This document shows, piece after piece, positions 344-27,732 of a DNA stretch of 32,000 bases (position 1 is its first letter; every line of letters begins with the position of its first letter). The stretch is from NCBI GenBank assembly GCA_046730875.1, contig JBKPJW010000162.1, positions 2,680 through 34,679 of the forward strand, written 5' to 3'. The notes beneath the pieces are model-generated. The model had not been told where the DNA came from. It made no database searches and saw nothing but the letters and a program-made list of their open reading frames with translations. Source of the stretch: Actinomycetota bacterium (GTDB taxonomy: Bacteria > Actinomycetota > Actinomycetes > Actinomycetales > Micrococcaceae). A program made the position numbers and the translations under genes.

Positions 344-1201
344 ATGGACATCAAGGGTACTGTCGCGCTGATCACGGGCGCGGCCTCAGGTCTCGGAGCC
401 GCCACGGCCAGGCGCCTGTTCGACGCCGGCGCGTCGGTGGTGCTCGTTGACCTGCCGGGGTCCGCCGGGGACGCCTTTGCCGCCGAACTGACCGCATCCG
501 CTGCTGCCCCCGCGGCTGGTTCCGCCGGCGGGGACGCGCCGGCCGCTGGCGGAGGCGGGCCGGCCGGGACCGGCCGCACGGCCGTCTTTGTCCCTGCCGA
601 CGTCACCGACGAGGCGCAGGTGCAGGCCGCCGTCGACGCCGCCGCCGCCCTCGGCCCGCTTCGCATCGTGGTGAACTGTGCCGGGATCGCCACCCCGGGC
701 AAGGTTCTGGGCCGCGACGGCGTGCTGCCGCTTGAGAACTTCAACCGCGTCATCCAGGTCAACCTCGTGGGCACCTTCAACGTGATCCGACTCGCCGCGG
801 CCGCGATGGCAGCCACCGAGCCCGCCACCACGGATCTCGGCGGCCCCGAACGCGGTGTCATCATCAACACCGCCTCCGTGGCCGCGTTTGACGGCCAGAT
901 CGGCCAGCCCGCCTATGCCGCCTCCAAGGGGGCCGTGGCAGCCATGACCCTGCCGGTTGCCCGTGAACTCGCGCGCTCGCTGATCCGGGTTGTCACTATC
1001 GCGCCGGGCATCTTCGAGACGCCCATGATGGCCGGGCTGCCGCAGGAAGCCCAGGACTCCCTGGGCCAGCAGGTGCCGCATCCATCCCGGCTGGGCCGAC
1101 CCGCCGAGTACGCCAATCTCGCCGCGCACATTGTGGAGAACGCCATGCTGAACGGCGAGACCATCCGCCTCGACGGCGCCATCCGCATGGGTCCGAAATG
1201 A
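344..1201 (+). CDS. short-chain dehydrogenase/reductase, 3-hydroxyacyl-CoA dehydrogenase type II-like
   Basis: TGAASGLG cofactor motif right after the start [18 protein letters not shown], and a YAASKGAV (YxxxK) catalytic motif. AAGGAGGA SD at 333-340 precedes the ATG at 344; the track ORF start at 257 is probably too far upstream. The stop overlaps the next gene's start (ATGA at 1198-1201). Confidence 0.9.
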
Positions 1202-8878: not shown

Positions 8879-9001
8879 ATGCTCGACTGTTATCACGGGC
8901 GCACTGAACCCAGTCTCTCCGTCCTCTCGGCGCCTCCGTTTGCTCGCGGGCCGTCTTCCGGGCGGACCATGGCTGAGTCCGCGGCGGGATGCCGGCAATG
9001 A
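8879..9001 (+). CDS. candidate 40-codon upstream ORF coupled to the ClC gene
   Basis: GGAAGGAG SD at 8865-8872, ATG at 8879, product MLDCYHGRTEPSLSVLSAPPFARGPSSGRTMAESAAGCRQ. Its TGA at 8999-9001 overlaps the in-frame ClC ATG at 8998 (ATGA). It is below the ORF-track size cutoff and I recognise no homology. Confidence 0.3.
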   Translation: MLDCYHGRTEPSLSVLSAPPFARGPSSGRTMAESAAGCRQ

Positions 9002-11088: not shown

Positions 11089-11118
11089 CCCCTTTCAACA
11101 GTCTCTGAAGGAGAAGTG

Positions 11119-12955: not shown

Positions 12956-13717
12956 TCACGCCTCCTGGTCCCGGGCCTCGCCGTAGGGCACGACGACGGT
13001 GCGGCGGGCCGTGCCGCCGTCGGAATAGGGGAGCGTCCTGACGGGAACGCCGTACAGGGCCGTGAGCGCGGGCTCCGTGAGCAGCTGCGCTGCCGGCCCG
13101 GTCAGTGCTCGTCCGCTGCCCAGGAGGACGGCCTGGTCGGCCAGATGCAGGGCATGGTCGGGATGGTGCGTGCTCAGCAGCAGGGCCATCCCGTCTGCCA
13201 TCAACTCGCGCAGGAGCGAGAGGACTCGCACCTGGTTCTTGAGATCGAGACCCGTGGCGGGCTCGTCCAGCACCAGCACAGGGCATCCCGTGGCGATGGC
13301 CCGCGCTATCAGGACCAGCTGTTGCTCGCCGCCGCTCAGGGTGGGGAAGCGGCGGTCCTGCAGGCCTTCGACGCCGACCTTTTCCATTGCCGCCAGGGCC
13401 GCGACCCGGTCCGCGGTTCCCGGTGTCCGGAAGATCCCTATCAGCCGGGCCCTGCCCATCAGGACCATGTCCAGGGCGCTGTATCCGAAAGCGCCGCCGC
13501 CGCGGGCCTGCGGGACATACCCGACGCCGTCTGAGCGGCGGACCGTTCCTTCCGCCGGCTCCAGCAGTCCGGCAGCGCATCGGACCAGCGTGGTCTTGCC
13601 GCTGCCGTTCGGGCCCAGCACCGCGGTGGCCGTCCCCGGATCCACCCGGAAACTGACACCCCGGAAAACCCAGGCCCGCCGGGCGTAGCCGAATCCCACA
13701 CCGTCCAGCTCAAGCAC
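12956..13717 (-). CDS. ABC transporter ATP-binding protein (FecE/BtuD-type)
   Basis: Walker A GPNGSGKTT, signature LSGGEQQ, Walker B LVLDEP. The GTG start at 13717 overlaps the permease stop by 8 nt. Confidence 0.9.
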   Translation of the reverse strand: MLELDGVGFGYARRAWVFRGVSFRVDPGTATAVLGPNGSGKTTLVRCAAGLLEPAEGTVRRSDGVGYVPQARGGGAFGYSALDMVLMGRARLIGIFRTPGTADRVAALAAMEKVGVEGLQDRRFPTLSGGEQQLVLIARAIATGCPVLVLDEPATGLDLKNQVRVLSLLRELMADGMALLLSTHHPDHALHLADQAVLLGSGRALTGPAAQLLTEPALTALYGVPVRTLPYSDGGTARRTVVVPYGEARDQEA

Positions 13718-14903
13718 TTTCCCAGATCCGATCCCGGTTCTGGCGGAGCAGCAGGAAGAACACAGGGGCGCCGATCAAAGCGGTGAGGACACCCAGCGGG
13801 ATCTCCCCGGCGGTTGCGGTGCGGGCAATGGTGTCCACAAGGACAATGTAGGCGCCGCCGAGGAGGAAGGAGACGGGCAGGAGCACCCGATGATCCGGGC
13901 CCACCCACATGCGGGCCAGGTGCGGTATCACCAGGCCCACCCAGCTGACCGCGCCGCTGACGGCCACCGCTCCGGCCACGATCAGGGCCACCGCAATCAG
14001 CACCACCCAGCGCAGGGGACGCGGCGCGACACCCAAGGCCGCGGCGTCCTCGTCGCCCAGGGAGAGCACATTGATGCGCCAGCGCAGCGCCACCAGCACC
14101 GCGGCTCCGCCCAGCACCGGCAGCAGCGCCACGGCGACCTTCGTATAGGTGGCCGTAGCCACGCTGCCCAGCAGCCAGAAGACAATCGCCGGCAGGGTGG
14201 TATTCGGGTCCGCGATGTAGGTGACCAGTGCGACGAGGGCGGAGAAGAACGACCCCGTGACCACCCCGCCGAGAACGATCATCAGCATCGGTGTCCCCCC
14301 GCGGCCGGACGTGATCAGGAGAAGCGTTCCGAGGGCTACCAGGCCGAAGAAGAAGGAACTCGCCACAAGGAGGAAAGGGCCCAGCCCCAGGAGCAGCGCC
14401 AGCGCGCCGCCGAAGGACGCCCCGGCGGAGACGCCGATGATCTCGGGACTGACCAGCGGATTGCGGAAAATCGCCTGCAGAGCAGCGCCGCCGATCGCCA
14501 GCCCGCCGCCGACGAGCACCGCGAGCAGCACCCGCGGCATCCGGACGAGCAAAACTACGTTCTGCTCAGTCTGGCTAGCGTCGAGGGGGAAGGGCACCAC
14601 CTGGGCGGCGAGGATCTGGACAACGTGCAGGGGCGGCACGCTGAACCGGCCCAAGGCCAGCGACAGCACCGAGACGACGATGAGCACACCCGCGGCGGTG
14701 GCAATGGGTCCCAGGACTGCCGGCCCGGCCCTTGGCGGACGACTCGCTGCCGGCCCGCTGTCTCCCGCAACCCTGCCTCCCGGAGCACCGGTAAGATCCC
14801 TTCCAGATAACCGGCCCCGCTGGTGCAGTCCTTGCCGGGAGGGGGTTCCTTCAGCCCGCTTGCTGCGGCCGTTCAGCCGCGCCGAGCTGCCTTCATGCAG
14901 CAT
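13710..14903 (-). CDS. FecCD/BtuC-family ABC transporter permease
   Basis: Polytopic membrane protein with MPRVLLAVLVGGGLAIGGAALQAIFRNPLVSPEIIGVSAGA, typical of iron-chelate/cobalamin-type permeases. The N-terminal ~60 aa are non-conserved-looking, so the true start may lie downstream of 14903. Confidence 0.87.
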   Translation of the reverse strand: MLHEGSSARLNGRSKRAEGTPSRQGLHQRGRLSGRDLTGAPGGRVAGDSGPAASRPPRAGPAVLGPIATAAGVLIVVSVLSLALGRFSVPPLHVVQILAAQVVPFPLDASQTEQNVVLLVRMPRVLLAVLVGGGLAIGGAALQAIFRNPLVSPEIIGVSAGASFGGALALLLGLGPFLLVASSFFFGLVALGTLLLITSGRGGTPMLMIVLGGVVTGSFFSALVALVTYIADPNTTLPAIVFWLLGSVATATYTKVAVALLPVLGGAAVLVALRWRINVLSLGDEDAAALGVAPRPLRWVVLIAVALIVAGAVAVSGAVSWVGLVIPHLARMWVGPDHRVLLPVSFLLGGAYIVLVDTIARTATAGEIPLGVLTALIGAPVFFLLLRQNRDRIWESA

Positions 14904-16047
14904 TGAATTGTTGATAGTTGGCGGACTGGCTGTTGGCCTCGGCCCACAGGATCCGGTTCAGCTCATCCTCGGTAGGCTCGTGGTTGTACAGGAACTGGAA
15001 GTACTCGCGGACCTTGCTGCGCAGCCCGGACCGCTCCTGGGGAAAAGCAATATCGGTGAGCCAGTGCCACATGAGCGGTGATTCCTGGCCCGGAGGATCC
15101 CAGCGGTAGCCGCCGAGCGGAACCTTGTAGACGCGCCGCTCACGGACCGCGGAAACGTTCTGCCACACCGGGTCCGAGTAGATGTCCTGGGGCACGGCCT
15201 GGTCGAAGTTGCCCAGGAGGATCACCTCGGGGTCCCACCGCAGGACCTGCTCCACATCCAGGCCCACCATGCCCGTACCCGGTAGCGGGTCGGGGCCGGT
15301 AGCGGGGTTGGTCCCGCCGATGAGCTTGATGTAGAAGTCGTTGTAGGTGTTGGCTGCCGCGGCCTTGAGTCCGCCCGTGAACCGGTTGAAGTACAGGATG
15401 CTGGGGCCAGCGGAGCCGCGGCCCGCCGCCGCGGCCTTGATGTCGCCGAGTTCCTGGTCGCTGCGGGCCTTGATCTCGGTGGCCCGCTCGGGTTTGCCAA
15501 GCATGGCGGCGAACATCGCCACCCAGGCGTCCACGTCCTCCTGCTTTCCGTTGTTTTTTAGGCCGATGACCGTCAGCCCGGCGTTCTCGAGCGGCTCGAT
15601 CAGTTGGGCGTCGGACCACTGAATCACGACGTCCGGGTTCAGGGCACGCACGCTCTCCACATTGGGGGTGAAATCCTGGGTCGCGATGTCGTGGGGAAGC
15701 TCCAGTGCGCGCGGAAACATCGTTCCCATGATGCCGTCACGCATCGCGACCCAGGAAGCGTTGTGCATCGCGGTCAGATGGTCGGCGCTGCGGTCAACGG
15801 CGACCAGCAGCGAGGCTGACGGCATCGGTATGGTCACGACGGAAGTGACCGGCCGGGCGAAAGTGACGGTCTTGCCCCGCTGATCCGTGATGCTGATGGG
15901 TCCGGCGGCTGCGGAACCTGTCCCGCCGGCGGTGGGCGATGCGGCCGGGGGAGCGGTCGATGCTCCGCATCCGGTGAGGAGGGCTGCGGATCCGCCCGCC
16001 ACGAGGACCTGAAGCACGGTGCGGCGGTTCAGATCGTCGACTCGCAT
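14893..16047 (-). CDS. ABC transporter substrate-binding lipoprotein (periplasmic binding protein type 2, iron-chelate/cobalamin class) with a Tat-type signal
   Basis: MRVDDLNRRTVLQVLVAGGSAALLTGCGAS carries a twin-arginine motif plus the LTGC lipobox. The body resembles class III SBPs. It is the first gene of the SBP-permease-ATPase operon, whose genes overlap each other. Confidence 0.87.
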   Translation of the reverse strand: MRVDDLNRRTVLQVLVAGGSAALLTGCGASTAPPAASPTAGGTGSAAAGPISITDQRGKTVTFARPVTSVVTIPMPSASLLVAVDRSADHLTAMHNASWVAMRDGIMGTMFPRALELPHDIATQDFTPNVESVRALNPDVVIQWSDAQLIEPLENAGLTVIGLKNNGKQEDVDAWVAMFAAMLGKPERATEIKARSDQELGDIKAAAAGRGSAGPSILYFNRFTGGLKAAAANTYNDFYIKLIGGTNPATGPDPLPGTGMVGLDVEQVLRWDPEVILLGNFDQAVPQDIYSDPVWQNVSAVRERRVYKVPLGGYRWDPPGQESPLMWHWLTDIAFPQERSGLRSKVREYFQFLYNHEPTEDELNRILWAEANSQSANYQQFNAA

Positions 16048-16261
16048 GCTTTAACCCCCTGTGCGTAGGTTCTTCACAGCATCCGCCTCGTGGTCAGGGC
16101 TGTCAATCGGCCCTGCCGGGCCAGGCCCGGCCCCGGCCAGAGCGCCGGCCCCGGCGGAGCGCCTGCCCCGTCCAATGCCGTGCCCGCCCAGAGCCCGCCC
16201 CTTGTCGGGGCCTGGGGGCGGTGCTACGTTCAAAGGACCTTGCGCAGAAGGTGGCCAGATC

Positions 16262-17041
16262 ATGCTTCTTGACGGTGCCCAGCTTTTTGTCCGCTATGCC
16301 TACCCGCCCAATTCGAGGGGCAGTTGCGGTCCGCCCGACAGTGATGCTCTGCTGCATTACGGCCAGTCCGGCGTGACGGACCAGGGTCTTCGCCAGCTGG
16401 CCAAAGGCTTCGCCGGGGCGTGGCCTTACCTGGAGCTGATTGCGGCCTCCACCGGCATACGGGATCCCCTCGACTACCGCGTGGTGGAAGCCTACTGGGT
16501 GGGGAACAGCCTCCTGGACTCCGTGGGCATCACCAACATCGGCAACTCCATGGAGGACCGGTTCCGCGCCCGCACGGGACATCAATTCCCGCACCTGGTG
16601 GAAGGCGTCCTTGCCGGCGGGGTTCCGCACCACAGTTTCCACGTTTTCGAGATCTATCCCTGGCTCGGTCTACTCCATGACGACCGGCGCCATGCCACGG
16701 CCTTGAGCGTGCTCGACCGGTGCCGCATCCGCTGGGGCGAGGTGCTGGCGGTTTCCGGCGACGATGCCGTGGTCCGGTCCAGGCCCCTGGTCTGGGACGG
16801 AACCTCGCTGTCCGTGGGTGAACCCGTGGTGGAGTCGGCCAAATATGCGGTGAACGGAGCCGGTTTCGTGGCGGGGCTCGCCGCCGGAGACATCGTCTCG
16901 CTCCACTGGGACTGGGTGTGCGACCGGCTCTCACCGGGTCAGCTGGAGCGCCTAAAGCACTTCACGGCACGGCATCTGCGGATCGCCAACGACGGCGTCG
17001 AGCACCGGGGCGCGGCCATCGCCCTGGAGCGCCAAGGCTGA
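16262..17041 (+). CDS. conserved hypothetical protein, DUF6390-like
   Basis: 259 aa from MLLDGAQLFVRYAYPPNSRGSCGP. Motifs such as EAYWVGN, HHSFHVF and LHWDWVCD match my memory of DUF6390 proteins found near actinobacterial hydrogenase maturation genes. GAAGGTGG SD lies upstream of the ATG at 16262. Confidence 0.7.
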   Translation: MLLDGAQLFVRYAYPPNSRGSCGPPDSDALLHYGQSGVTDQGLRQLAKGFAGAWPYLELIAASTGIRDPLDYRVVEAYWVGNSLLDSVGITNIGNSMEDRFRARTGHQFPHLVEGVLAGGVPHHSFHVFEIYPWLGLLHDDRRHATALSVLDRCRIRWGEVLAVSGDDAVVRSRPLVWDGTSLSVGEPVVESAKYAVNGAGFVAGLAAGDIVSLHWDWVCDRLSPGQLERLKHFTARHLRIANDGVEHRGAAIALERQG

Positions 17042-17198: not shown

Positions 17199-17537
17199 CT
17201 ACGGGGAATGCGGCGCAGCAGAGTCCGTGTCCTCCGGCGGGTTGACTCCCGTGGCGTGCCGCGGCGAGGCTTCGGCCGCCGGGCGGCCGGCAGGGCTGGC
17301 GTTGGCGTCGGTGTCCTCGCGGCCCGGCTCGTGGCCTTCCTGCTTGACCACGTCCTCGCCCCGGCGCGTGGTGCTTTCGCCAACACCTTCAGGGGCCATC
17401 GCTGCGTCGTCGGGAGTCTCGTCGGCTCCCGGCTGCGCGGGTTCCTTCAGCGGCGGTTCGCTTCCGAAAGCGCGTGCCGTCCCGGGGGCGGTTCCTTCCG
17501 CGGCGTCTTTGTCGTTGGACGGATTGGTCGGTGACAT
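17199..17537 (-). CDS. hypothetical acidic, Pro/Ala/Glu-rich (probably disordered) protein, 112 aa
   Basis: Strong GAGGAGGA SD lies 5 nt upstream of the ATG at 17537, third positions are G/C-rich, and the gene sits 45 nt downstream of hypC on the same strand. There are no recognisable motifs. Confidence 0.5.
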   Translation of the reverse strand: MSPTNPSNDKDAAEGTAPGTARAFGSEPPLKEPAQPGADETPDDAAMAPEGVGESTTRRGEDVVKQEGHEPGREDTDANASPAGRPAAEASPRHATGVNPPEDTDSAAPHSP

Positions 17538-17582: not shown

Positions 17583-17840
17583 TCAGCCCTCGTCGGCATC
17601 CGCGTCCCGGGGACGGCCCATCAGTTCCAGCCCGTCCATGGCCCGGTCGGCGCCGTCGGAATCGACCCGTTCCAAGGCGAATCCCATGTGGATGAGTACC
17701 CAGGTGCCGGGCTCCAGCGGGCCTTCGTCCAGCAGGCCGATGTTGATTTTCCGCTGCACGCCCGCCACGTCCACCAGGGCGAGCTGGTTGCCGTACCCCT
17801 CCAGCAGTTCGATGACCTGGCCGGGTATTCCTAGGCACAT
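17583..17840 (-). CDS. hypC: hydrogenase maturation chaperone HypC/HupF family
   Basis: MCLGIPGQVIEL N-terminus with the essential Cys2, 85 aa, starting 4 nt after the endopeptidase stop. Confidence 0.9.
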   Translation of the reverse strand: MCLGIPGQVIELLEGYGNQLALVDVAGVQRKINIGLLDEGPLEPGTWVLIHMGFALERVDSDGADRAMDGLELMGRPRDADADEG

Positions 17841-18427
17841 GATGCCCCCTCCGTGTGGTGTTCCGAGACAAGGCCAACGACGGCGGCAATCGCCTCAGGT
17901 ACGGCCGCCGCCACAGCGTCGCTCAGGCCGATCCCTTCGGTCATGTCAGCAGGCACGCAGCCCACCACATAGGTCACGGGCAGCTCGCCGCCCAGCGAAC
18001 GGAGGCGGCCCAGCACTGCCGCCGGGTCCATGCCGTGCGGGTCCAGGGCGGCGGTGCCGTCCAGGTCCTCCCGGCGCACCCGGAGGACCCTGATGCTGCC
18101 GGGTGCCGCGGTCTTTGAGCCGTCCGGCGGCACCGTGTCCACCAGCACCAGGACGTCCACGCCTGCCACCAGGTCGTAAGCCAGGTGCATGCCGCGGATT
18201 CCGTAGTCCACGGCCAGCAGGCCCGGCAGGTCCGGGTCAGCCGCACCGGCGAGCCGGCGTGCCACCTCCGGGCCGAATCCGTCGTCGCGCAGGAAAATGT
18301 TGCCCACCCCGGCCACCAGGATGCGGGCTCGGTGCCCTGCGGGGTCGTGCCCTTCCGTGCCGGTGGCCGCATTGCCGTTGCCCGCCGTCCCGGTGGCCGC
18401 ATTGCCGGGCTGGAGTCCGTTCGTCAC
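17831..18427 (-). CDS. [NiFe]-hydrogenase maturation endopeptidase (HupD/HyaD/HybD family)
   Basis: ILVAGVGNIFLRDDGFGPEVARRL and LDPHGMDP motifs. I place the start at GTG 18427, which overlaps the stop of the 39-aa ORF (GTGA). The track ORF extends to 18658 through a frame that gives an implausible Cys/Arg-rich N-terminus. Confidence 0.85.
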   Translation of the reverse strand: MTNGLQPGNAATGTAGNGNAATGTEGHDPAGHRARILVAGVGNIFLRDDGFGPEVARRLAGAADPDLPGLLAVDYGIRGMHLAYDLVAGVDVLVLVDTVPPDGSKTAAPGSIRVLRVRREDLDGTAALDPHGMDPAAVLGRLRSLGGELPVTYVVGCVPADMTEGIGLSDAVAAAVPEAIAAVVGLVSEHHTEGASCA

Positions 18428-18543
18428 ATCCGCCGCGCTTTCAGGTAGCGCTGGATGTCCGGGACCGAGCGTATTCCCACATAGACGGCACCGAGCGCCA
18501 GAGCTGCCAGCAGTCCGACTGTGGCCATTCCTACAATCCTCAT
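18424..18543 (-). CDS. 39-aa single-pass membrane micropeptide (not in the ORF track)
   Basis: My own minus-strand translation gives MRIVGMATVGLLAALALGAVYVGIRSVPDIQRYLKARRM. Its ATG overlaps the stop of the upstream 463-aa gene (ATGA, 18540-18543), and its TGA overlaps the endopeptidase GTG (GTGA, 18424-18427). The peptide has a hydrophobic helix and a basic tail. Confidence 0.55.
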   Translation of the reverse strand: MRIVGMATVGLLAALALGAVYVGIRSVPDIQRYLKARRM

Positions 18544-19931
18544 AGCGGGTCGTCCCTTTCATCGTCGAGCGGTTCAAGTTCCTCGGGAGCGTAATAGAAG
18601 GATCTGCCGTAGCCCTCGTGGAGGTCCGCGGCGGGGTCCTGTTCGAGCACGAGCCCAACGTGGGTGCTGCCGTCGACGTCGAAATGCACGCTGGTGACCC
18701 GGCCGGTCTGCCCGGCGAAGAACAGGTCCTGGGCGTCGGCCCGCCGGCTCGGGTTCACCCGGACCCGGCTGCCGCGGGCCACCGGAACACCGTTAATCAG
18801 AACGGCATCCATGTGCGGCTGGACGAGGGCTTCCGATTCCGGCGTCCACCACGGTGCCTCACCGCCGGTGGGGGTCAAACCTTCGGGATCGTTCAGGAAT
18901 TCCTCGGCACGGGGGTTGCGCAGGATTCCGTGCAGCTGCTGGAGCTCCTCCGGTGACATGGCTTCGCACTGGTCGATGATCGCGGCCGCGCGGGGATCGG
19001 TGGCGCGGGCCTCGGCTTTTTCCTCATCGGTCAGTGTCAGCACCCGTAGGGTGAGGATCTCGTCTATCTCCGTTGAGTCGTACAGGGCCACGGAACTTTC
19101 CGGCGCGACGGCCGGGTGGTCGTAGAGGATGATCGGGGACACCAGGAGCACGTCCGTCTGCCCCTCGGGACCGGCCAGCACGGGCCAGCAGCGATGCTGT
19201 GTGCAGGCAGCAGCCGCGTCCTTGGCCCAGCCGGGCGGATCCAGAAGCGACAGGAAATCCGCGTCCCGCAGGTCCAGGAGCACGTGCGCGCCGATGAAGG
19301 ACGCGGCGATCGCGTCTTGCCGGTTCCCGGGATCCTCGGCCGGCTCTGCGGTGTTGGTGACGGAAACCCGGAGCCGGATAAGCCCGTCGCCGGCGGCGGC
19401 GCTGAGGCCGACTTCGCCGTGCAGCGCGCGACGGCGGCGCACCAGCCGCCCGGCCAGCCGGCCGGCGTCGTCGCGGAGTTCCTCCACGTCCTCACCCGCG
19501 GGGATGTCCACCGGCAGCACGAGCGGTCCGTCGCCGGGCCGAAGCTGCCCCACCGGAACCGGGCCCAGCGCGATTTCCCGCTCCACTGCCTCGTCCCAGC
19601 TCAGCCAGCGGGAGGCGCCGACGGCGAGTTCGGCCACCGGACTGAAGTTGCCGGCGTCGTCCGCTTCTTCCGCGGTACGGCTCTGCAACTGCAGGAAACG
19701 CAGGTGGACTTCCACCTCCGCCTGCGCTCCGGGGCTCAGCAGGCAGTCGGCGAACATTCCCGGTTCCTCCCCGGCGCCGGCTTGGGCGGCTCCGGGCGGC
19801 CCCAGGATGCCAAACTGCCAGCGCGACTGGTTCTTTTGCGAGGAGGCGCGGTAGGGATACAGCAGGTAGCCCTCGTAGAGGACCGCGTCCGCGACTGCCC
19901 GGGCCAGGCTCAGGCTCATATTCATGGTCAT
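18540..19931 (-). CDS. conserved hypothetical protein of hydrogenase clusters (463 aa)
   Basis: The frame starts MTMNMSLSLARAVADAVLYEGYLLYPYRASS at ATG 19931, overlapping the upstream stop (ATGA, 19928-19931). The track ORF's extra 71 N-terminal codons overlap the previous gene. No cofactor motif is visible. Confidence 0.8.
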   Translation of the reverse strand: MTMNMSLSLARAVADAVLYEGYLLYPYRASSQKNQSRWQFGILGPPGAAQAGAGEEPGMFADCLLSPGAQAEVEVHLRFLQLQSRTAEEADDAGNFSPVAELAVGASRWLSWDEAVEREIALGPVPVGQLRPGDGPLVLPVDIPAGEDVEELRDDAGRLAGRLVRRRRALHGEVGLSAAAGDGLIRLRVSVTNTAEPAEDPGNRQDAIAASFIGAHVLLDLRDADFLSLLDPPGWAKDAAAACTQHRCWPVLAGPEGQTDVLLVSPIILYDHPAVAPESSVALYDSTEIDEILTLRVLTLTDEEKAEARATDPRAAAIIDQCEAMSPEELQQLHGILRNPRAEEFLNDPEGLTPTGGEAPWWTPESEALVQPHMDAVLINGVPVARGSRVRVNPSRRADAQDLFFAGQTGRVTSVHFDVDGSTHVGLVLEQDPAADLHEGYGRSFYYAPEELEPLDDERDDPL

Positions 19932-20584
19932 GGGAGCCGCTCTCCGCCCACGCCCGAGGCGTCGGCAGCCAGCAGGGTCTCGACGGTGGCCTCCCATGAG
20001 GTCAGGCCGCGCGCCGACTTGTACCGGGACAGGGCGGCCAGCACGTCCCGGTCCAACCGGATCCAGCCCGCATTGGGAAAGTACTGGTCCATCAGCCGGT
20101 GCCAGGCCGCCACGGGGAGCCGGTAGGACGCTTCGAGGTCCCACGGCACTTGTTCCACCCCGAATCCCGTCTGGCCTTTGGTAAAGACGGTGCCGGAGAA
20201 CAACAGTTCAAGCGGGATCTCCCCGTCCCGGAGGGCGTTCAGGTACTTGGCCGCGGCGACGTCGAAGTCGAAGGTGCACGGCAGGGCCAGGTCCGCCTCG
20301 GTGCTGCCCGTGAAACCCTGCACCATGGTGCTGCATTGCAGCCACAGGAAGGACTTGAGCGTGCTGGGCCACCGGCCGCGCTCGCCGAAGAGGTCCAGGA
20401 GCCCGCCTTCCTCCTCGTCCGCATACCCGCGGCGTTGCGGCAGGATCCGCACCTGGCAGCGCAGCGCGATAGCGTGGACGGCGGCTCCGGTGGCCTCGGT
20501 GATCCGGAGCCGGGCGGTCAGCTGCGGGGCAGCGGCGTAGGGCTCAGGCTGGATGTCGACGACGGCGAACGCCAGCTCGGTCAT
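19928..20584 (-). CDS. conserved hypothetical protein, DUF6084-like (218 aa)
   Basis: MTELAFAVVDIQPEPYAAAPQLTARLRI... The ATG at 20584 overlaps the upstream stop (ATGA, 20581-20584). The position and sequence style match the conserved unknowns of actinobacterial hhy loci as I recall them. Confidence 0.78.
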   Translation of the reverse strand: MTELAFAVVDIQPEPYAAAPQLTARLRITEATGAAVHAIALRCQVRILPQRRGYADEEEGGLLDLFGERGRWPSTLKSFLWLQCSTMVQGFTGSTEADLALPCTFDFDVAAAKYLNALRDGEIPLELLFSGTVFTKGQTGFGVEQVPWDLEASYRLPVAAWHRLMDQYFPNAGWIRLDRDVLAALSRYKSARGLTSWEATVETLLAADASGVGGERLP

Positions 20585-21345
20585 CGCGGGCCTCCCGGCA
20601 TGGACTCATGCCCGTCCGCCGGCGCGGGCTTGTCGGCCGGTGCAAGCTTTTCCTCGGGCGCATGCTTGTCCTCCAACACCGGCCGGCTGCGGCTGCCGAG
20701 CCGCGCGAAGAAGGCCGCGAGCTGCTCACGGGCCTCCTGACCGCCGTCGAACCCGCGCCAGAGCCGGCGCAGCTGGCCCACCAGTTCGTAGCAGGCGTCC
20801 ACGGGGACGAGGTGGCAGTCGGCGCGGGCACGCTCCGGTCCGGGACCACGGATCAGGAGCGCTTCCGTGTCCGGGGCCGCCATGGCCAGCGCCGGGTTCC
20901 GGGCCATCACCGCGCCCCACGCGCCCAGCGGAAGCTCCGATTCGGTGGCACCGGCCGGCCCGGGATAGAAGGCCACCGTCCGGTCGAGTTTGGAGCTGCG
21001 GAAGAAGAAGGCCAGGCCCACCGGGATTTCCAGCTCGTCCCACTGACCGGGACCGAGTTCGAAATCGGGGAAGGACAGGTACCGGTCCGGCACTGAACGG
21101 TAGCGCAGATGGGCGCTGGCGTCGGTGAAGAGGAGATAGCACGGCCGGCATGTGCACATCATGGCGTGGGATTCCAGGTCGACGACGTGCTGGTGCTCCT
21201 CCGGGATCGGTTCCCCGCACATTTCGCAGCGCTCGCCGGCGGGCGCCGCAGGCGGATTGGTGGCGATCCTGCGCAACAGTGCCACCGGCAACCCGCCGGG
21301 GGCAGCCCGGGTGCGGCCGGTCTCGGTGCTGCGTCCGGCGCTCAC
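20581..21345 (-). CDS. conserved hypothetical protein with a Cys-rich N-terminal motif, DUF5947-like (254 aa)
   Basis: The GTG start at 21345 lies 1 nt after the upstream stop. It contains CEMCGEPIPEEHQHVVDLESHAMMCTCRPCYLLF (CxxC...CxCxxC). Confidence 0.78.
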   Translation of the reverse strand: MSAGRSTETGRTRAAPGGLPVALLRRIATNPPAAPAGERCEMCGEPIPEEHQHVVDLESHAMMCTCRPCYLLFTDASAHLRYRSVPDRYLSFPDFELGPGQWDELEIPVGLAFFFRSSKLDRTVAFYPGPAGATESELPLGAWGAVMARNPALAMAAPDTEALLIRGPGPERARADCHLVPVDACYELVGQLRRLWRGFDGGQEAREQLAAFFARLGSRSRPVLEDKHAPEEKLAPADKPAPADGHESMPGGPR

Positions 21346-21346
21346 G

Positions 21347-22336
21347 TCAGGCGTCCTGGCCCGAAACCGCCGGCACGGCCACGGACATCACGCCGGACCT
21401 GACCAGGAGCGGTAACGGATCCAGGTGCAGGTTCCGGTCCTCGAGACAGCTTCCGGCCTGCCGCACGTCGAAATGGGCGCGGCATGAGGGGCAGCGCAGC
21501 AGGCCGCCGCCCGCCGGTGCGGCCAGCGCGCGCTGGAGTGTGGCACCGGCCATCGACGCCGTGCAGCGCGGGCAATAGTCGCGGTAGGCATAGACGTCCT
21601 GGCCGGTCCGGCAGGCGAGCACCGGATAGCCGCCCACCAGGAAGCCGGCAACGTCGCCGGGCTCCAGTCCGGCAATTTCCGGCACAGGCTCCCAGGACCC
21701 GCCGGGGTGCTCCTGCCAGGCCCCGGCGCCGCCCGGTCCGCGGTTCGGCGCACTGTCAGCGGTGCCGACGCCGGTGCCGACGCGCTGCTGGTCCAGACGA
21801 ACCAGAAGCGCGTCCACCGGGATTACGGCAGGAATGCCGGGACGCGATTCCTCCTCGACCACTTCGATGCCCGTAACCTCAGGTGCGGCCGACTCGATCG
21901 CCTCCTCGACGGCGAACTTGAGCGTGACCGACGACGACGGGCAGCCCTGGCAGGTGCCGAGCAGCTTCAGCCGAACCACGCCCTCCGGGCTGATGTCCAG
22001 GAGGTCCACGTTGCCGCCGTGCGAGCCCAGATACGGCCGGACACTGTCCAGCGCGGCAGCCACGCGTGTTTCCAGATCCTGCGGGTGCAGCCCGTGGATG
22101 ACCAGAAGGCTGGACACCAGCTCATCGGAGGTCAGCGCGTCCAGCGTGCCGTCGTCCAACTGTCCGCGGTCAGAGAGGATTTCCAGGATCCGGGCCAGCC
22201 CGGCACCGTACAGCTCCGTTACCTGGCGGACCAGTTCCTCAGCGCGGCCGCGGGCCACCGCCCCACCGGCGCCCAGGGCGTCGAGGAGACTCTCGATCCG
22301 GTCACCGGCCGGCCGCGGCCGGTCCTCGCCAGGCAT
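21347..22336 (-). CDS. hhyE: putative iron-sulfur protein: NifU-like domain plus Rieske-fold-like Cys4 domain (HhyE/HucE type)
   Basis: VRPYLGSHGGNVDLLDISPEGVVRLKLLGTCQGCPSSSVTLKFAVEEAI is a NifU C-terminal domain with CxxC. The C-terminal half has YRDYCPRCTASM and LLRCPSCRAHFD (CxxC...CxxC). The gene starts 6 nt after the hhyL stop. Confidence 0.8.
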   Translation of the reverse strand: MPGEDRPRPAGDRIESLLDALGAGGAVARGRAEELVRQVTELYGAGLARILEILSDRGQLDDGTLDALTSDELVSSLLVIHGLHPQDLETRVAAALDSVRPYLGSHGGNVDLLDISPEGVVRLKLLGTCQGCPSSSVTLKFAVEEAIESAAPEVTGIEVVEEESRPGIPAVIPVDALLVRLDQQRVGTGVGTADSAPNRGPGGAGAWQEHPGGSWEPVPEIAGLEPGDVAGFLVGGYPVLACRTGQDVYAYRDYCPRCTASMAGATLQRALAAPAGGGLLRCPSCRAHFDVRQAGSCLEDRNLHLDPLPLLVRSGVMSVAVPAVSGQDA

Positions 22337-22342
22337 GGCTTG

Positions 22343-24136
22343 TTACTCGCCGGTCAGACTCTGGGTGGGGGAGTGCAGCTTGTCCAGGGTCTGGCCGTTG
22401 CCCAGATACATGTGGACGCCACAGGGCAGGCAGGGGTCGAAGCTGCGGACGGTGCGCATGATGTCGATGCCCTTGAAGTGCTCGCGATCGTTTTCTTCGA
22501 AGATCGGCTGTCCCTGGACTGCGTCCTCGTAGGGGCCGGAAACCCCGGCCGAGTCCGTCGGGCTGGCATTCCAGGGGGTCGGCGGATACGGATGGTAGTT
22601 GGCGATCTTCCCGTCGCGGATCACCATGTGGTGCGACAGGACACCCCGCACGGCTTCGGTGAAGCCGCAGCTGATGGCTTCGTCCGGCACCTCGAAGGTC
22701 TCCCAGGTCTTGGTGCGGCCGGCACGGATCTCCTCGAGCGCCTTCTCCGCGAAGTGCAGCGCCGCGGCCGCGGCGTAGGCCTGGAAGTAAGTGCGCGCCC
22801 GGTTGCGTTCGATCGTGTTGCTCCACTGCGGGATGTTCCACTCCAAGGACACGGGACCCTTCAGCGCGGTCTTGGGCAGGTTGATCTGGACACTCCGGCC
22901 GGTGGACTTGATGTAGCCGATGTCCACCAGCCCGGCCAGTGCCGTTGCCCAGAGGCGCGCCAGCGGGCCGCCGCCGGTGTCCAGTGCCAGGTTGTCCTGG
23001 CCGTCGAACCAGCGCGGCGACATGACCCAGCTGTACTTGTCCGCGAGGTCCCGCTTCTGAGGCCGCGGATTGGTGTGCTGGTTCCAGGGATGCCGGCGGT
23101 CCACGGGATTGCCCAGCGGATCGTGGGTCACGAACATCTCCTGGCCTTCCCAGTCCTCGTAGTAGGAGGAGCCGAGCATGATCCGGATGCCCAGGTTGAT
23201 CCGCACCAGGTCCGTCGTGATGAGTTTTCCGTCCACCACCACGCCGGGGGTGACGAACATCTTCCGGCCCCACTCGGTCATGTCCTTGTACTCGAAGTTG
23301 CAGTGGTCCGGGTCCTGGAGCGAGCCCCAGCAGCCTAGCAGCGTGCGCCGCAGCCCCACCTGCTCGTAGCCGGGCAGGGCCTCATAGAAGAAGTCGAAGA
23401 GGTCGTCATGCATGGGGACAACCTTTTTCATGAACTCCACGTAGCGCATGAGCCTGGTGACGTAGTCCGTCATCAGCTGGATGGTGGCAACGGTGCCCAC
23501 ACCGCCGGGGTAGAGCGTGGACGGGTGGACGTGGCGTCCTTCCATGAGGCAGAACATTTCGCGGGTGGCCCGGCTGACCTGCAGGGCTTCGCGGTAGAAC
23601 TCGCCCGTGAACGGGTTGAGCGAGCGCATGATGTCCGCGATGGTCCGGTAGCCGTGGTCGGCCTCATGCGGGGCGCGGGTGTTTTCAGCCTTGGCCAGCA
23701 CTCCGGGGTTGGTTTCGGAGACCATCTTTTCGCAGTAGTCCACGCCGACGAGGTTTTCCTGGAAGATGTTGTGGTCGAACATGTACTCGGCAGCTTCACC
23801 CAGGTTCACGATCCACTCGCCCAGGTTCGGTGGCTTCACGCCGTACGCCATGTTTTGCGCGTAGCAGGAGCAGGTGGCGTGGTTGTCGCCGCAGATGCCG
23901 CAGATCCGGCTGGTGATGAAGTGGGCGTCGCGCGGGTCCTTGCCCTTCATGAAAATGGAGTAGCCGCGGAAGATCGAGGAGGTGCTCTTGCACTCCACTA
24001 CCTGGTTGTTTGCGAAATCGATCTTGGTGTAGATGCCGAGGCTGCCGACGATCCTGGTGATGGGGTCCCACGCCATCTCCACCAGGTTGCTGTCGCCTGT
24101 TCCGCTTCCGGACGGCATTGGAATCGTTGAGGTCAT
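22343..24136 (-). CDS. hhyL: [NiFe]-hydrogenase large subunit, group 1h (Hhy/actinobacterial type)
   Basis: 597 aa from MTSTIPMPSG (ATG 24136). L1 motif TSRICGICGDNH; L2 motif SFDPCLPCGVH, followed by a cleavable tail MYLGNGQTLDKLHSPTQSLTGE. Confidence 0.95.
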   Translation of the reverse strand: MTSTIPMPSGSGTGDSNLVEMAWDPITRIVGSLGIYTKIDFANNQVVECKSTSSIFRGYSIFMKGKDPRDAHFITSRICGICGDNHATCSCYAQNMAYGVKPPNLGEWIVNLGEAAEYMFDHNIFQENLVGVDYCEKMVSETNPGVLAKAENTRAPHEADHGYRTIADIMRSLNPFTGEFYREALQVSRATREMFCLMEGRHVHPSTLYPGGVGTVATIQLMTDYVTRLMRYVEFMKKVVPMHDDLFDFFYEALPGYEQVGLRRTLLGCWGSLQDPDHCNFEYKDMTEWGRKMFVTPGVVVDGKLITTDLVRINLGIRIMLGSSYYEDWEGQEMFVTHDPLGNPVDRRHPWNQHTNPRPQKRDLADKYSWVMSPRWFDGQDNLALDTGGGPLARLWATALAGLVDIGYIKSTGRSVQINLPKTALKGPVSLEWNIPQWSNTIERNRARTYFQAYAAAAALHFAEKALEEIRAGRTKTWETFEVPDEAISCGFTEAVRGVLSHHMVIRDGKIANYHPYPPTPWNASPTDSAGVSGPYEDAVQGQPIFEENDREHFKGIDIMRTVRSFDPCLPCGVHMYLGNGQTLDKLHSPTQSLTGE

Positions 24137-24161
24137 GTGCTTCACCTGTCTGGACGTGGGG

Positions 24162-25220
24162 CTACCAGGTGCGCCGCGCACCGGTGAGAAGCTGAGTGCC
24201 GGGCCGGCGCCACTTGGGCTCCTGGTCCAGGGTGTGGGTGGTGATTCCACGCAGCGCCCTGATGGCCGAACCGTACGGGCGGATGGTGTTCGTTGAAAGC
24301 TTGCCGCCGGGAGGCTCATCCATAAAGGGCATGAACTTGTCCGGGAATCCCGGCATCGTGCAGCCGATGCAGATGCCGCCGACGTTCGGGCAGCCGCCGA
24401 TGCCGTTCATCCAGCCCCGTTTGGGCACGTTGCATTTGACCACGGGACCCCAGCATCCGAGTTTGACGATGCACTTGGGGGATCCGTACTCGGTGGCGAA
24501 GTCGCCCTGTTCGTAGTATCCGGCCCGGTCGCAGCCCTCATGGACGGTCTTGCCGAAGAGCCAGGTGGGCCGCAGCGCGTCGTCGAGCGGAATCATCGGG
24601 GCCTGGCCGGTGGCCTGGTAGAGCAGGTAGGTCATCGTCTCGGAGAGGTTGTCCGGCTGGATGGGGCACCCGGGGACGCAGACAATAGGGATCCCGGCCT
24701 TGGATTTCCAGTCATAGCCGAGGTAGTCCGGCACTCCCATGGCCCCGGTGGGGTTTCCTGCCATCGCGTGGATGCCGCCGTAGGTGGCGCAGGTCCCGGC
24801 GGCGATGATGGCGGTGGCCTTGGGGGCCAGGCGGTCCAGCCATTCGCTGGTGGTGATCGGCTGGCCGGTCTCCAGGTCGTTGCCGAACCCGCACCAGTAG
24901 CCGCCCGGGGCGTGCAGTTTTTCGTTAGGGATGGATCCCTCCACCACCAGGACAAACGGTTCAAGTTCGCCGCGGTCCGCCTTGCGGAACCACTCCAGGA
25001 AGTCATCGGCCCCTTCCTGCGGGCCGCACTCGAAGTCGATCAGCGGCCAATGCATGGCAATGCGCGGCAGGCCGGGCAGGGCGCCGAGGGCTATTTCCTC
25101 GACACTGGGCTGGGTGGCCGCGGTCAGGGCCACAGAATCGCCGTCGCAGCTGAGCCCTGCGTTGATCCACAGCACGTGAATGAGGGTTTCTTCGGCCTTC
25201 AGAGAAGTTTCAGTAGGCAT
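24162..25220 (-). CDS. hhyS: [NiFe]-hydrogenase small subunit, group 1h, no Tat signal peptide
   Basis: 352 aa, MPTETSLKAEETLIHVLWINAGLSCDGDSVA, with multiple Cys ligand motifs (CVPGCP, CIGCTMPGFPD). No RRxFxK signal. AAGAGG SD. Confidence 0.95.
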   Translation of the reverse strand: MPTETSLKAEETLIHVLWINAGLSCDGDSVALTAATQPSVEEIALGALPGLPRIAMHWPLIDFECGPQEGADDFLEWFRKADRGELEPFVLVVEGSIPNEKLHAPGGYWCGFGNDLETGQPITTSEWLDRLAPKATAIIAAGTCATYGGIHAMAGNPTGAMGVPDYLGYDWKSKAGIPIVCVPGCPIQPDNLSETMTYLLYQATGQAPMIPLDDALRPTWLFGKTVHEGCDRAGYYEQGDFATEYGSPKCIVKLGCWGPVVKCNVPKRGWMNGIGGCPNVGGICIGCTMPGFPDKFMPFMDEPPGGKLSTNTIRPYGSAIRALRGITTHTLDQEPKWRRPGTQLLTGARRTW

Positions 25221-25241
25221 CGTTGCCTCTTTCGGAGGCCC

Positions 25242-26132
25242 TTACGGGCTCAGTGTGTCCGTCAAAGATCCGGTCAACGTGGATGACCGGGAGTTGGCTT
25301 CCCCGAGCCAGTCGTACCAGCCGGCGAGGCCTTCACCGGTGGTGGCCGAAAGGACCAGGAAATCGGTGTGCGGGTTGATCTGCCGGGCTCTGCGCCGGAA
25401 CCCGTCGACGTCGAAATCAACGTAGGGGAGCAGGTCCGATTTGTTGATAATCACCAGATCGGCTGCGCTGAACATATGGGGGTATTTCTGCGGCTTGTCA
25501 TCACCTTCCGTCACGGAAACGACTACTACTTTGGCTGCTTCGCCCAGGTCGAACAGTGCCGGGCAGACCAGGTTGCCCACATTCTCGATGAACACCGTGG
25601 ACCCGGTTTGCGGATCCAAGGCGTCCAGGGCACGCCGGAGCATGTCCGCATCCAGGTGGCAGCCCGCTCCGGTGTTGATCTGGACAACGGGCCGGCCCAC
25701 CGCACGGATGCGGTCCGCGTCCAGGGACGTCTCCTGGTCACCCTCGACGACGCCGGCCCGCAGCCGTCCGCCCAGGTCCGCGAGAGTGCGGACCAGGAGG
25801 GTGGTTTTGCCTGCGCCGGGGGAACTCATCACGTTCAGCGCGCGGATTCCCCGGCCTTCCAGCCAGCCCCGGTTCCTCGCCGCGAGCAGCTCGTTTTTCG
25901 CGAGCAGGCTCTGCTCCAGCGGGATGGTTTCAGGCTGGTGGGCGTGGGCGTGGGCGTGCTCGTGGTCGTGGTCGTGGTCCGGACCGTGCTCGTGCGGGTG
26001 GTCGTGCTCGTGCTCCGAACCGTGGGCGTGGGGATGAACATGCAGGTGCCCTGGCAGCAGTGCGCCTGAAGGTTCCGCAACGGCCGAAACCCTGATGTTC
26101 GTCTCGTCCCCGCATCCGCACGTCATACACAT
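25242..26132 (-). CDS. hypB: hydrogenase nickel-incorporation GTPase HypB with a His-rich tract
   Basis: MCMTCGCG N-terminal CxxCGC motif, a His-rich stretch (HLHVHPHAHGSEHEHDHPHEHGPDHDHDHEHAHAHAH), and the SSPGAGKTT P-loop. The start at 26132 lies 2 nt after the hypA stop. Confidence 0.93.
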   Translation of the reverse strand: MCMTCGCGDETNIRVSAVAEPSGALLPGHLHVHPHAHGSEHEHDHPHEHGPDHDHDHEHAHAHAHQPETIPLEQSLLAKNELLAARNRGWLEGRGIRALNVMSSPGAGKTTLLVRTLADLGGRLRAGVVEGDQETSLDADRIRAVGRPVVQINTGAGCHLDADMLRRALDALDPQTGSTVFIENVGNLVCPALFDLGEAAKVVVVSVTEGDDKPQKYPHMFSAADLVIINKSDLLPYVDFDVDGFRRRARQINPHTDFLVLSATTGEGLAGWYDWLGEANSRSSTLTGSLTDTLSP

Positions 26133-26134
26133 TC

Positions 26135-26464
26135 TTAGGCCACCTCCACCGACATCAGCATGAGTTCGCGGCCGCTGAGGACTTCCACGTCCGCGCTTCC
26201 GCAGGGACACAGCAGGATCAGGTCAGTCAGCTCGAACTCGTCGAGGCAGTCCCGGCAGCGGGCCCGGCCCTGCGGTTCGTCAATCATCAGCCGGGCGCCT
26301 GCCAGAGGGGTGTCAGCGGAGGCAACGTCGAAGCAGAAGCGCATGGCATCCGGCAGGACACCGGACAGGGACCCAACCTTGAGATTGACCGCGGTGACTT
26401 TCCGTTCGCCGGTTCGGTCGAGAACGGCTTCGATAAGGCTCTGTGTGATAGAGAGTTCGTGCAT
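26135..26464 (-). CDS. hypA: hydrogenase nickel-insertion protein HypA
   Basis: 109 aa from the MHELSITQSL start (MHE nickel-binding N-terminus), with CRDC...CPCG zinc motifs. AGGAAGGGG SD lies upstream of the ATG at 26464. Confidence 0.9.
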   Translation of the reverse strand: MHELSITQSLIEAVLDRTGERKVTAVNLKVGSLSGVLPDAMRFCFDVASADTPLAGARLMIDEPQGRARCRDCLDEFELTDLILLCPCGSADVEVLSGRELMLMSVEVA

Positions 26465-26598
26465 GGCGCACCCCTTCCTGCCAAGATAGGCGCGGGCAGG
26501 ATAAAAAACAACCATCCGATATGCCGCGGGCGTATACTGCCGCCAAAGCGGCCAAGCCGACACGGCAATGGTCCGCGAGGGGAACCCGAGGCTGGACC
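26465..26598. promoter_or_regulatory. divergent control region between hypA (hydrogenase operon) and the NiCoT nickel permease
   Basis: 134-bp intergenic region containing an AT-rich core (ATAAAAAACAACCATCCGATATG), a TATACT -10-like hexamer (26533-26538) facing the permease, a TATCTT-like hexamer facing hypA, and the inverted repeat CCTGCC-N12-GGCAGG (26477-26500). Confidence 0.5.
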
Positions 26599-27732
26599 AT
26601 GAAACAACCGAAGGTTACGCGTCCGGGCCGGATCCGCGGCGCGCGCAGTGTCCTTTCTGGCCGGGAGTGGGCATCGGTCGGCGGAATGGTCCTGTTCGTT
26701 GCTTTCCTGCACATTCTGGGCTGGGGCGTGCTGGCAGGAGTGGCGGACCCGCAGAATGTCCCCGCCGGTTCAACCGGAGTGTTCGGCGTGGGCCTGGGCG
26801 TGGCTGCCTATACGCTGGGCCTGCGCCACGCTTTCGATGCCGACCACATTGCCGCAATCGATAACATCACCCGCAAATTCCGGGCCGAGGGCAAGCGCAG
26901 CATGTCCGTGGGTTTCTGGTTTTCGCTGGGCCATTCGAGCATCGTGTTCGGCTTATGCGCCCTCCTGGCGGCCGGCATTCGCGGCCTGACGGATCAGGCG
27001 GTGGACGGGGCCTCGGAGCTCCATTCCGTCCTGGGACTCGTGGGCACAATGGTCTCCGGCTTTTTTCTGGTGTGCATTGGCGTCCTGAACCTGGTGGTGC
27101 TGCGGGGCATCATTAAGTCAGTCCTGCGGATGCGGGAGAGTGAAGAAGCCGGCGCAGATCTGGCGGGGCAGGCCGCGACCCCGGGACTGATGTACCGGGT
27201 GTTCGGGCGGATCACCCGCTTTGTCACCCGTCCGTGGCACGTCTACGGCGTCGGATTGCTGTTCGGCCTGGGCTTTGACACGGCCACCGAGGTCAGCCTC
27301 CTGATTCTGGCAGGAGGTGCCGCGGCCTCCACGCTGCCCTGGTACGCGATCATGACGCTGCCGATCATCTTCGCTGCGGGGATGAGCCTGCTGGACTCGC
27401 TGGACGGCTGTCTCATGAACTTCGCCTACGGCTGGGCGCTGTCCCGGCCAGTCCGCCGGATCTATTACAACATCGTCATCACGGGACTTTCTGTGGCCGT
27501 CGCGCTGGGCATCGGCTCCATTGAGCTGATCTCTATCCTCGTGGAACGGGCCGGGATCAGCGCCGGTCCGCTGTACGCCATCGGCGGCATCGACCTGGAT
27601 TCGGTGGGGTACACGGTGGTTGCGCTTTTCCTGGGTACATGGGTGCTGGCACTTGGAGTGTGGCGGTTCGGCCACATAGAGGAACGGTGGTCCGCTCCGG
27701 TCAGGAACCCGGACGCGGGCGAGGACCGCTGA
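26599..27732 (+). CDS. hoxN: NiCoT family nickel/cobalt permease (HoxN/NixA type)
   Basis: LRHAFDADHIAAIDN signature (HX4DH) and LFGLGFDTATEV, in a polytopic protein. The start is set at MKQPKVTRPG (ATG 26599). Confidence 0.9.
   Translation: MKQPKVTRPGRIRGARSVLSGREWASVGGMVLFVAFLHILGWGVLAGVADPQNVPAGSTGVFGVGLGVAAYTLGLRHAFDADHIAAIDNITRKFRAEGKRSMSVGFWFSLGHSSIVFGLCALLAAGIRGLTDQAVDGASELHSVLGLVGTMVSGFFLVCIGVLNLVVLRGIIKSVLRMRESEEAGADLAGQAATPGLMYRVFGRITRFVTRPWHVYGVGLLFGLGFDTATEVSLLILAGGAAASTLPWYAIMTLPIIFAAGMSLLDSLDGCLMNFAYGWALSRPVRRIYYNIVITGLSVAVALGIGSIELISILVERAGISAGPLYAIGGIDLDSVGYTVVALFLGTWVLALGVWRFGHIEERWSAPVRNPDAGEDR

Follow-up and report, generated by a model that had tools for sequence, protein, structure and literature searches.

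The window analysed here, a 32,000-nucleotide stretch of contig JBKPJW010000162.1, carries on its minus strand, at positions 17583-26464, a canonical hhy operon of an Arthrobacter-like actinobacterium, which encodes the cytoplasmic, Tat (twin-arginine translocation)-independent group 1h [NiFe]-hydrogenase HhyS/HhyL. The genes run in the order hypA, hypB, hhyS, hhyL, five accessory open reading frames (ORFs), hupD and hypC. On balance, we favour the view that the five ORFs between hhyL and the maturation endopeptidase gene hupD form an enzyme-specific maturation and assembly module, and not an electron-transfer chain. Soil actinobacteria use the oxygen-tolerant group 1h enzyme to live on trace atmospheric hydrogen, and a large share of the biological sink for atmospheric H2 is attributed to hydrogenases of this group. 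The role of the block touches two questions of the field, namely how these enzymes are assembled in air and how their electrons pass to the membrane.

The assignment of HhyL and HhyS to group 1h is secure at the level of sequence, because of their scores against the HofG and HofK chains of Protein Data Bank (PDB) entry 5AA5, the presence of both large-subunit motifs and the lack of a Tat signal. The large subunit (hhyL, 22343-24136, 597 amino acids (aa)) matches HofG (5AA5_C) with an E-value of 0 and 1067 bits, as compared with 163 bits for the best other hydrogenase and 124 bits for Huc (group 2a), a score gap that stands in for a formal tree or HydDB placement. The small subunit (hhyS, 24162-25220, 352 aa; Pfam Oxidored_q6 and NiFe_hyd_SSU_C) matches HofK (5AA5_A) with an E-value of 1e-162 and 544 bits, the alignment starting at residue 14. 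Its N-terminus, MPTETSLKAEETLIHVLWINAGLSCDGDS (also given as MPTETSLKAEETLIHVLW...), has no RR (twin-arginine) motif. GLSCDGDS of HhyS aligns with GLGCDGDS of HofK, so that CDGD stands at the proximal-cluster position with Asp replacing the second Cys (CxxD); in the 5AA5 structure this Asp is said to be a ligand of the proximal cluster. The L1 motif TSRICGICGDNH and the L2 motif SFDPCLPCGVH, conserved in group 1h/5 hydrogenases (PMC5364354), are both found verbatim in HhyL. The match to HofG ends at the His of CGVH (residue 575), with a tail beyond it, which fits C-terminal processing. The closest homologues come from Arthrobacter and Pseudarthrobacter. An earlier note, made from the letters of this DNA alone, had proposed a group 1h enzyme from the large-subunit motifs, near the N-terminus and at SFDPCLPCGVH, and from a 352-aa small subunit without a twin-arginine signal; the scores and the translations bear this out, and the tail that it put at ~21 aa is indeed present, although 22 aa long.

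The first accessory ORF after hhyL (21347-22336, 329 aa; PF01106 NifU, 76 bits) is an hhyE homologue. It is followed by a DUF5947 protein (20581-21345, 254 aa as the longest ORF; PF19372, 248.6 bits) and a DUF6084 protein (19928-20584, 218 aa; PF19562, 321.7 bits), the gathering threshold being 25 for both families. The fourth, ORF463 (18540-19931, 463 aa), matches no Pfam or NCBIfam family and belongs to a conserved family of homologues, and the fifth is a small DUF6893 protein (18424-18543, 39 aa; PF21833, 47.0 bits versus a threshold of 24.6). The protease gene hupD comes next (17831-18427, 198 aa counted from the GTG at 18427) and matches both TIGR00072 (104.8 bits, cut-off 47.45) and PF01750 HycI (33.5, cut-off 23). 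All five ORF lengths given in the earlier note were recovered. Its description of them as a block of function-unknown genes holds in part: published accounts of group 1h operons list these genes as conserved hypothetical proteins ('hhaABC', PMC6776052; also PMC7174314), but four of the five ORFs fall into the named Pfam families NifU, DUF5947, DUF6084 and DUF6893. The arrangement had been described before, the accessory genes are catalogued in hundreds of genomes, and the catalogue gains nothing new from this locus.

As had been claimed, the accessory block belongs with the enzyme. The ORF463 profile was used to fetch 80 genome loci, which come from many genera of Actinomycetota and, in one case, from a metagenome-assembled genome (MAG) labelled Sericytochromatia. 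The order hhyS-hhyL-hhyE-DUF5947-DUF6084-ORF463-DUF6893-hupD-hypC was found in all 80, wherever the contig extends, and hhyE directly follows the group 1h large-subunit gene in every locus reaching that far (76/80). The same block order is present on the Cupriavidus necator plasmid pHG1 and the Methylocystis parvus plasmid pMpar-2. In the MAG, labelled Candidatus Sericytochromatia (locus L016), the block is actinobacterial-like and its ORF463 homologue is 56% identical to the window protein; it could be bin contamination or the product of horizontal transfer.

Gene fusions link this block to proteolytic maturation. The ORF463 family comprises 3919 cluster representatives at E<=1e-3, and its profile matches at least 589 stretches of species-representative genomes. 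Ten of the representatives are over-long, and seven of these have a C-terminal HycI/HupD protease domain while one (P0237) has an N-terminal DUF6084 domain (fused set: P0173, P0140, P0142, P0180, P0192, P0204, P0210 and P0237; loci L088-L091). The seven protease-fused proteins are diverged, with 44-50% identity to the window protein, and in them the protease N-terminus directly continues the ORF463 C-terminus (...EEIEPLARSVLVAGIGNIFLGDDGFG in one example). One protease fusion was found on two independent contigs, and the genes of the P0210 and P0180 fusions have hyp genes around them and a hydrogenase small-subunit gene downstream. As Rosetta-stone fusions, they connect ORF463, and through ORF463 also DUF6084, with the proteolytic maturation of the large subunit, and hence favour maturation over electron transfer as the likely role. 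That the block lies with the structural genes on one side and hupD-hypC on the other argues in the same direction, as does the conservation analysis, in which neither ORF463 nor DUF6084 displays an Fe-S-type or other cofactor motif. DUF6084 shows no conserved Cys or His in its alignment, conserved Trp, Phe and Arg being abundant instead. A kinship of DUF6084 with DUF5947 was considered and dropped, since hhalign shows no relationship.

A confident AlphaFold 2 (AF2) model was obtained for ORF463 (predicted local distance difference test (pLDDT) 89.4, predicted template modelling score (pTM) 0.79). In the model, the invariant EGYxLYPYR...N..RWQFG lies on an N-terminal helix and residues 58-265 form a large beta domain; a helical domain bearing the invariant acidic D-x-T-E-I-D-E comes next, and a linker without order leads to an SH3-like barrel at the C-terminus. 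The top Foldseek match, DrmA of DISARM (E 5.6e-6), was rejected, with a TM-score of 0.27 and a root mean square deviation of 21.6 Å. The SH3-like barrel alone resembles nitrile hydratase beta and PetP weakly (E 4e-3 to 2e-2), and sequence and profile searches against PDB chains yielded no relative of ORF463, CarS at E 0.014 being the same SH3-like region. A phage tail-chaperone match in 8 of 67 ORF463 homologues, from a lenient Pfam scan, was weak and was disregarded.

HhyE points the same way. Its NifU-like domain has the pair C129xxC132, and its C-terminal Rieske-fold-like domain has C255xxC258 (CPRC) and C282xxC285 (CPSC) with no CxH; the Rieske_2 score (24.1) falls under the cut-off of 27. 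These cysteines are conserved in at least 99% of 74 sequences (99% for C129 and C132). A NifU domain is usual in cluster carriers rather than in electron carriers, and the Nfu-type domain of HhyE therefore favours maturation. A NifU-like CxxC with two C-terminal CxxC pairs, as opposed to the CxH...CxxC of HucE, is the published signature of HhyE (Islam et al. 2019, PMC6883350), and by this signature and its position after hhyL the 329-aa ORF can be assigned to the HhyE clade. In Mycobacterium smegmatis, Hhy activity was lost on deletion of hhyE (MSMEG_2718) and was not rescued by the artificial acceptor nitroblue tetrazolium (NBT) (PMC6883350), as expected if the active enzyme itself is missing; this, too, speaks for maturation. 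In the module that we favour, HhyE would be an Nfu-type Fe-S carrier supplying or repairing the clusters of HhyS, DUF5947 would act as a Cys/His metal-binding helper, and DUF6084 and ORF463 could serve as chaperone or scaffold on the HhyL precursor while HupD removes the 22-aa tail; DUF6893 would be a small membrane peptide travelling with the protease gene.

The DUF5947 protein bears on both possible roles. Across 72-90 sequences, the C. necator homologue included, eight of its residues never vary (C40, C43, H51, H53, C64, C66, C69 and C185), which makes it a probable metal-binding protein. Its AF2 model has a pLDDT of 81. No mention of DUF5947 or DUF6893 was found in the literature searched. 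The block could alternatively be the missing electron-transfer and membrane-docking module of the enzyme, with HhyE and DUF5947 relaying electrons from the distal cluster of HhyS and DUF6893 providing the anchor for menaquinone reduction. We regard this as rather unlikely, although it accounts well for the conserved CxxC pairs of HhyE, for the invariant Cys/His set of DUF5947 and for a cluster in which, save for the DUF6893 peptide, no cytochrome b or other membrane subunit is encoded. The M. smegmatis Hhy is moreover membrane bound and feeds the menaquinone pool (10.1101/769216), and a relay is the role preferred for HhyE by the authors of PMC6883350. It explains less readily why ORF463 should be fused to a maturation protease in several lineages, why ORF463 and DUF6084 lack cofactor motifs, why a NifU domain is used and why NBT staining did not rescue the hhyE deletion. 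Of the solved C. necator enzyme (5AA5), searches of the PDB returned only the HofK and HofG chains although pHG1 encodes the whole block, and they found no relative of ORF463, DUF5947 or DUF6084; this again fits maturation better than a relay.

Several points weigh against a maturation module. The authors of PMC6883350, while calling a maturation role equally compatible, favour an electron relay for HhyE; they name the mutual homologues MSMEG_2717 and PHG067, which by gene order correspond to the DUF5947 protein, as another relay candidate; and HhyE co-migrates with HhyS and HhyL on native gels, as cited in the same paper. The six Cys and two His of DUF5947, together with the all-Cys domain of HhyE, could be redox centres. 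A protease fusion shows functional linkage, not the step that is served. No mechanism emerges from folds either: Foldseek gave no convincing relative for the ORF463 model, and the DUF5947 model had no match among PDB folds better than E 0.15. Finally, Methylacidiphilum fumariolicum SolV has hhyS-hhyL-hupD only, with an active, high-affinity enzyme (PMC5364354, PMC7174314), and its genome is reported to lack the accessory genes (PMC7174314), so the block is not universally required for maturation. The same strain couples its group 1h enzyme to the respiratory chain without these genes, which counts against the relay. For Pyrinomonas, PMC7174314 cites a suggestion that the accessory proteins carry electrons. 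Roles may also be split between maturation and electron transfer.

The 39-aa DUF6893 protein is the only predicted membrane element in the cluster. All 80 loci have a DUF6893-like ORF. Its gene adjoins the protease gene or domain, directly before or after it. The peptide has one predicted transmembrane helix, whose hydrophobic core spans 19 residues (Kyte-Doolittle 2.11); its basic tail contains five Lys/Arg, has the pattern PD-x2-RY-x3-R-x-M and would lie in the cytoplasm by the positive-inside rule. Four residues never vary: D29, R32, Y33 and the final Met. In each of the 79 complete copies this Met directly precedes the stop codon, which may be TGA, TAG or TAA; the Met is therefore constrained at the protein level and not by the overlapping start codon. 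We had considered that DUF6893 might be absent from C. necator, which would suit a soluble enzyme. This proved wrong: pHG1 (locus L081) contains at ~10999-11100 (+) a 33-aa DUF6893-like ORF, MKGFLKYLVLPALVVALLANIKDIRRYIRIRSM, between the protease gene and hypF; this ORF is missing from the gene table of the record. None was detected on the Methylocystis plasmid pMpar-2 (L087). The M. smegmatis Hhy is bound tightly to the membrane and is not released by 5% cholate, while its subunits have no predicted transmembrane region (10.1101/769216), which makes DUF6893 a speculative candidate tether. A linked pair of proposals, in which DUF6893 is the Hhy membrane tether and ORF463 an obligatory HupD partner, a checkpoint chaperone presenting the tail of the HhyL precursor, would go further, and we consider the pair improbable as it stands. 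If true, the ORF463-HupD checkpoint would be a maturation step specific to hydrogenases of obligate aerobes.

The junctions within the operon are tight. A 6-nt gap separates hhyL from hhyE, and a 1-nt gap (TGAcGTG, at 21346) separates hhyE from the DUF5947 gene. ATGA overlaps follow at 20581-20584 (DUF5947/DUF6084), 19928-19931 (DUF6084/ORF463) and 18540-18543 (ORF463/DUF6893), then a GTGA overlap at 18424-18427 (DUF6893/hupD) and a 10-nt overlap of hupD with hypC (ATG 17840, TAG 17831-17833). From hypA (26464) to hypC (17583) the widest gap is 25 nt, and a promoter and terminator scan gave no site above chance and no credible internal terminator; for these two reasons the genes from hypA to hypC are probably transcribed as one message. 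The five junctions listed in the earlier note are all in the sequence. That note had gone on to read them as a sign of fixed stoichiometry, that is, of a complex tied to the enzyme. The tie to the enzyme stands, with the order kept in every locus and on pHG1. As support for a stoichiometric complex the overlaps themselves are weak: the window also has an unrelated short-chain dehydrogenase/acyl-CoA dehydrogenase pair that shares an ATGA, at 1198-1201 (+). The ORF463-HupD and DUF6084-ORF463 fusions of other lineages are better evidence for physical cooperation.

There is, in our estimate, about an even chance that the overlaps are simply the ordinary junctions of a compact high-GC operon, kept because the operon is kept and silent on stoichiometry or complex formation. 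This would concern the overlap argument only and is compatible with either a maturation or an electron-transfer role of the block. Start/stop overlaps are the commonest junction in such operons, and the dehydrogenase pair indicates that this genome uses them routinely; there is overlap, too, among the ABC-transporter ORFs at 12956-16047. Most starts have a purine-rich Shine-Dalgarno-like stretch of their own, such as GGGAGG for the 218-aa ORF and GGAGGGGG for hypC, so independent initiation is possible, and junction lengths differ among loci (-4, -1, +1, +2 and +7 nt). On the other hand, the 4-nt overlap is retained in 47/75 (HhyE/DUF5947), 65/78 (DUF5947/DUF6084) and 67/80 (DUF6084/ORF463) related loci, a count that uses the start codon closest to the upstream stop and is thus biased to short distances; independent gene callers report these overlaps as well. 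Such retention in 63-84% of loci, across genera, at three consecutive junctions and also in Betaproteobacteria, is a persistence beyond what neutral drift alone suggests. We infer that translation may actually be coupled at these junctions.

Part of the junction map depends on where the ORFs are drawn. Both the 254-aa ORF and hupD begin at a GTG that was picked mechanically as the longest or nearest option. DUF5947 homologues mostly have 210-236 aa, and the 1-nt gap is therefore perhaps not the true junction, while the first 33 residues of HupD form a low-complexity extension outside the protease model. From these observations it might be argued that some small or GTG-started ORFs (the 39-aa ORF, or the 254-aa and hupD starts) are not genes as drawn, which we think unlikely overall. 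The 39-aa ORF is clearly real, given its Pfam family, its presence and amino-acid conservation in every locus and its constant terminal Met; 1825 database clusters match it, and nearly all of those listed are 39 aa long. Public gene calls on an identical NCBI contig give products of the same 597, 329, 463 and 218 aa.

The remaining genes belong to the two ends of the operon and its borders. The run opens with hypA (26135-26464, 109 aa; PF01155 HypA, 108 bits), a nickel metallochaperone gene, and, after a 2-nt gap, hypB (25242-26132, 296 aa; PF02492 cobW/HypB, 87 bits), encoding a nickel-inserting GTPase with a His-rich N-terminus; it closes with the HypC/HupF chaperone gene hypC (17583-17840, 85 aa; PF01455, 77 bits; TIGR00074). 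A NicO/HoxN-type nickel transporter gene (26521-27732 (+), start uncertain; PF03824, 279 bits, match from residue 91) diverges from hypA. An imperfect palindrome, GCGGGCGTATACTGCCGC, lies in this divergent region at 26526-26543, 81 nt upstream of the hypA start, and may be an operator; three close Arthrobacter loci (L001, L002 and L009) have similar GTATAC-centred elements equally far from the start. At the other end, a DUF6390 gene (16250-17041 (+), start approximate; PF19927, 305 bits) is convergent with the operon. DUF6390 genes occur in 65 of the 80 hhy loci, in other genera usually on the same strand and after the hyp genes, and by this conservation are a further member of actinobacterial hhy clusters. 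The genes hypD, hypE and hypF, which come after hypC in Mycobacterium, Streptomyces and C. necator, were searched for in the 32-kb window and up to 10 kb from the cluster in nine loci of the Arthrobacter group (L001-L009); none was found, and they must therefore lie elsewhere in the genome.

Two further features were noted in the window. A 112-aa acidic, Pro/Ala/Glu-rich low-complexity ORF (17199-17537 (-)) lies 45 nt beyond hypC with a strong ribosome-binding site, AAGAGGAGGA, upstream, and has tblastn matches in five close Arthrobacter loci only. At 8989-12498 (+), a 699-aa ORF in which a CLC-type channel is joined to a YrhK-like segment precedes a PLP (pyridoxal phosphate)-dependent decarboxylase, a pairing reminiscent of acid-resistance systems, and the AT skew across this region is strongly negative (-0.37).

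Taken together, the analysis offers three leads: the ORF463-protease fusions, the DUF5947 Cys/His set and DUF6893 as the sole predicted membrane element. The protease fusions and the micro-protein are modest new leads, and all three would help to rank the accessory genes for deletion or co-purification in a tractable model such as M. smegmatis.

Enzyme-specific helpers encoded between structural and hyp genes have apparent analogues in O2-tolerant membrane-bound hydrogenases, namely HoxL, HoxO, HoxQ, HoxR, HoxT and HoxV of C. necator and HupF to HupK of Rhizobium. No sequence or Pfam relationship was detected between these Hox/Hup accessory families and DUF5947, DUF6084 or ORF463. The rubredoxin HoxR, a metal-Cys protein, is needed for aerobic maturation, as cited in PMC6883350. 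The group 2a enzyme Huc of M. smegmatis is likewise an O2-insensitive, Tat-independent oxidiser of atmospheric H2 that feeds menaquinone, although its large and small subunits match HhyL and HhyS only weakly (124 and 102 bits). Huc uses a dedicated membrane-associated subunit, HucM, and no HucM-like gene was seen in the window. HucE is a NifU-domain homologue of HhyE with ~27% identity, and differs from it in having a true Rieske CxH...CxxC (PMC6883350).

The Hhy of M. smegmatis, with its HhyE (MSMEG_2718), belongs to the same enzyme class as that of the window, and the cluster layout is the same in mycobacterial loci. It is the sole system with a genetic test of function, for hhyE only (PMC6883350). 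Mycobacterial clusters extend downstream into the hyp genes and DUF6390 without a change of strand, whereas DUF6390 is convergent in the window. Plasmid pHG1 of C. necator (Ralstonia eutropha) H16 has the same order of hofK, hofG, NifU-family, DUF5947, DUF6084, long hypothetical and protease genes, with block junctions of 1-, 4-, 8-, 4- and 4-nt overlaps. Its NifU protein has 192 aa, without the C-terminal all-Cys domain of the window HhyE, its DUF6893-like ORF follows the protease gene where the window has it before hupD, and hypF, hypC, hypD, hypE, hypA and hypB follow in the cluster, as compared with hypA and hypB upstream in the window. The C. necator accessory proteins are nonetheless 36-44% identical to those of the window, and a HoxN-family nickel transporter gene adjoins both clusters.

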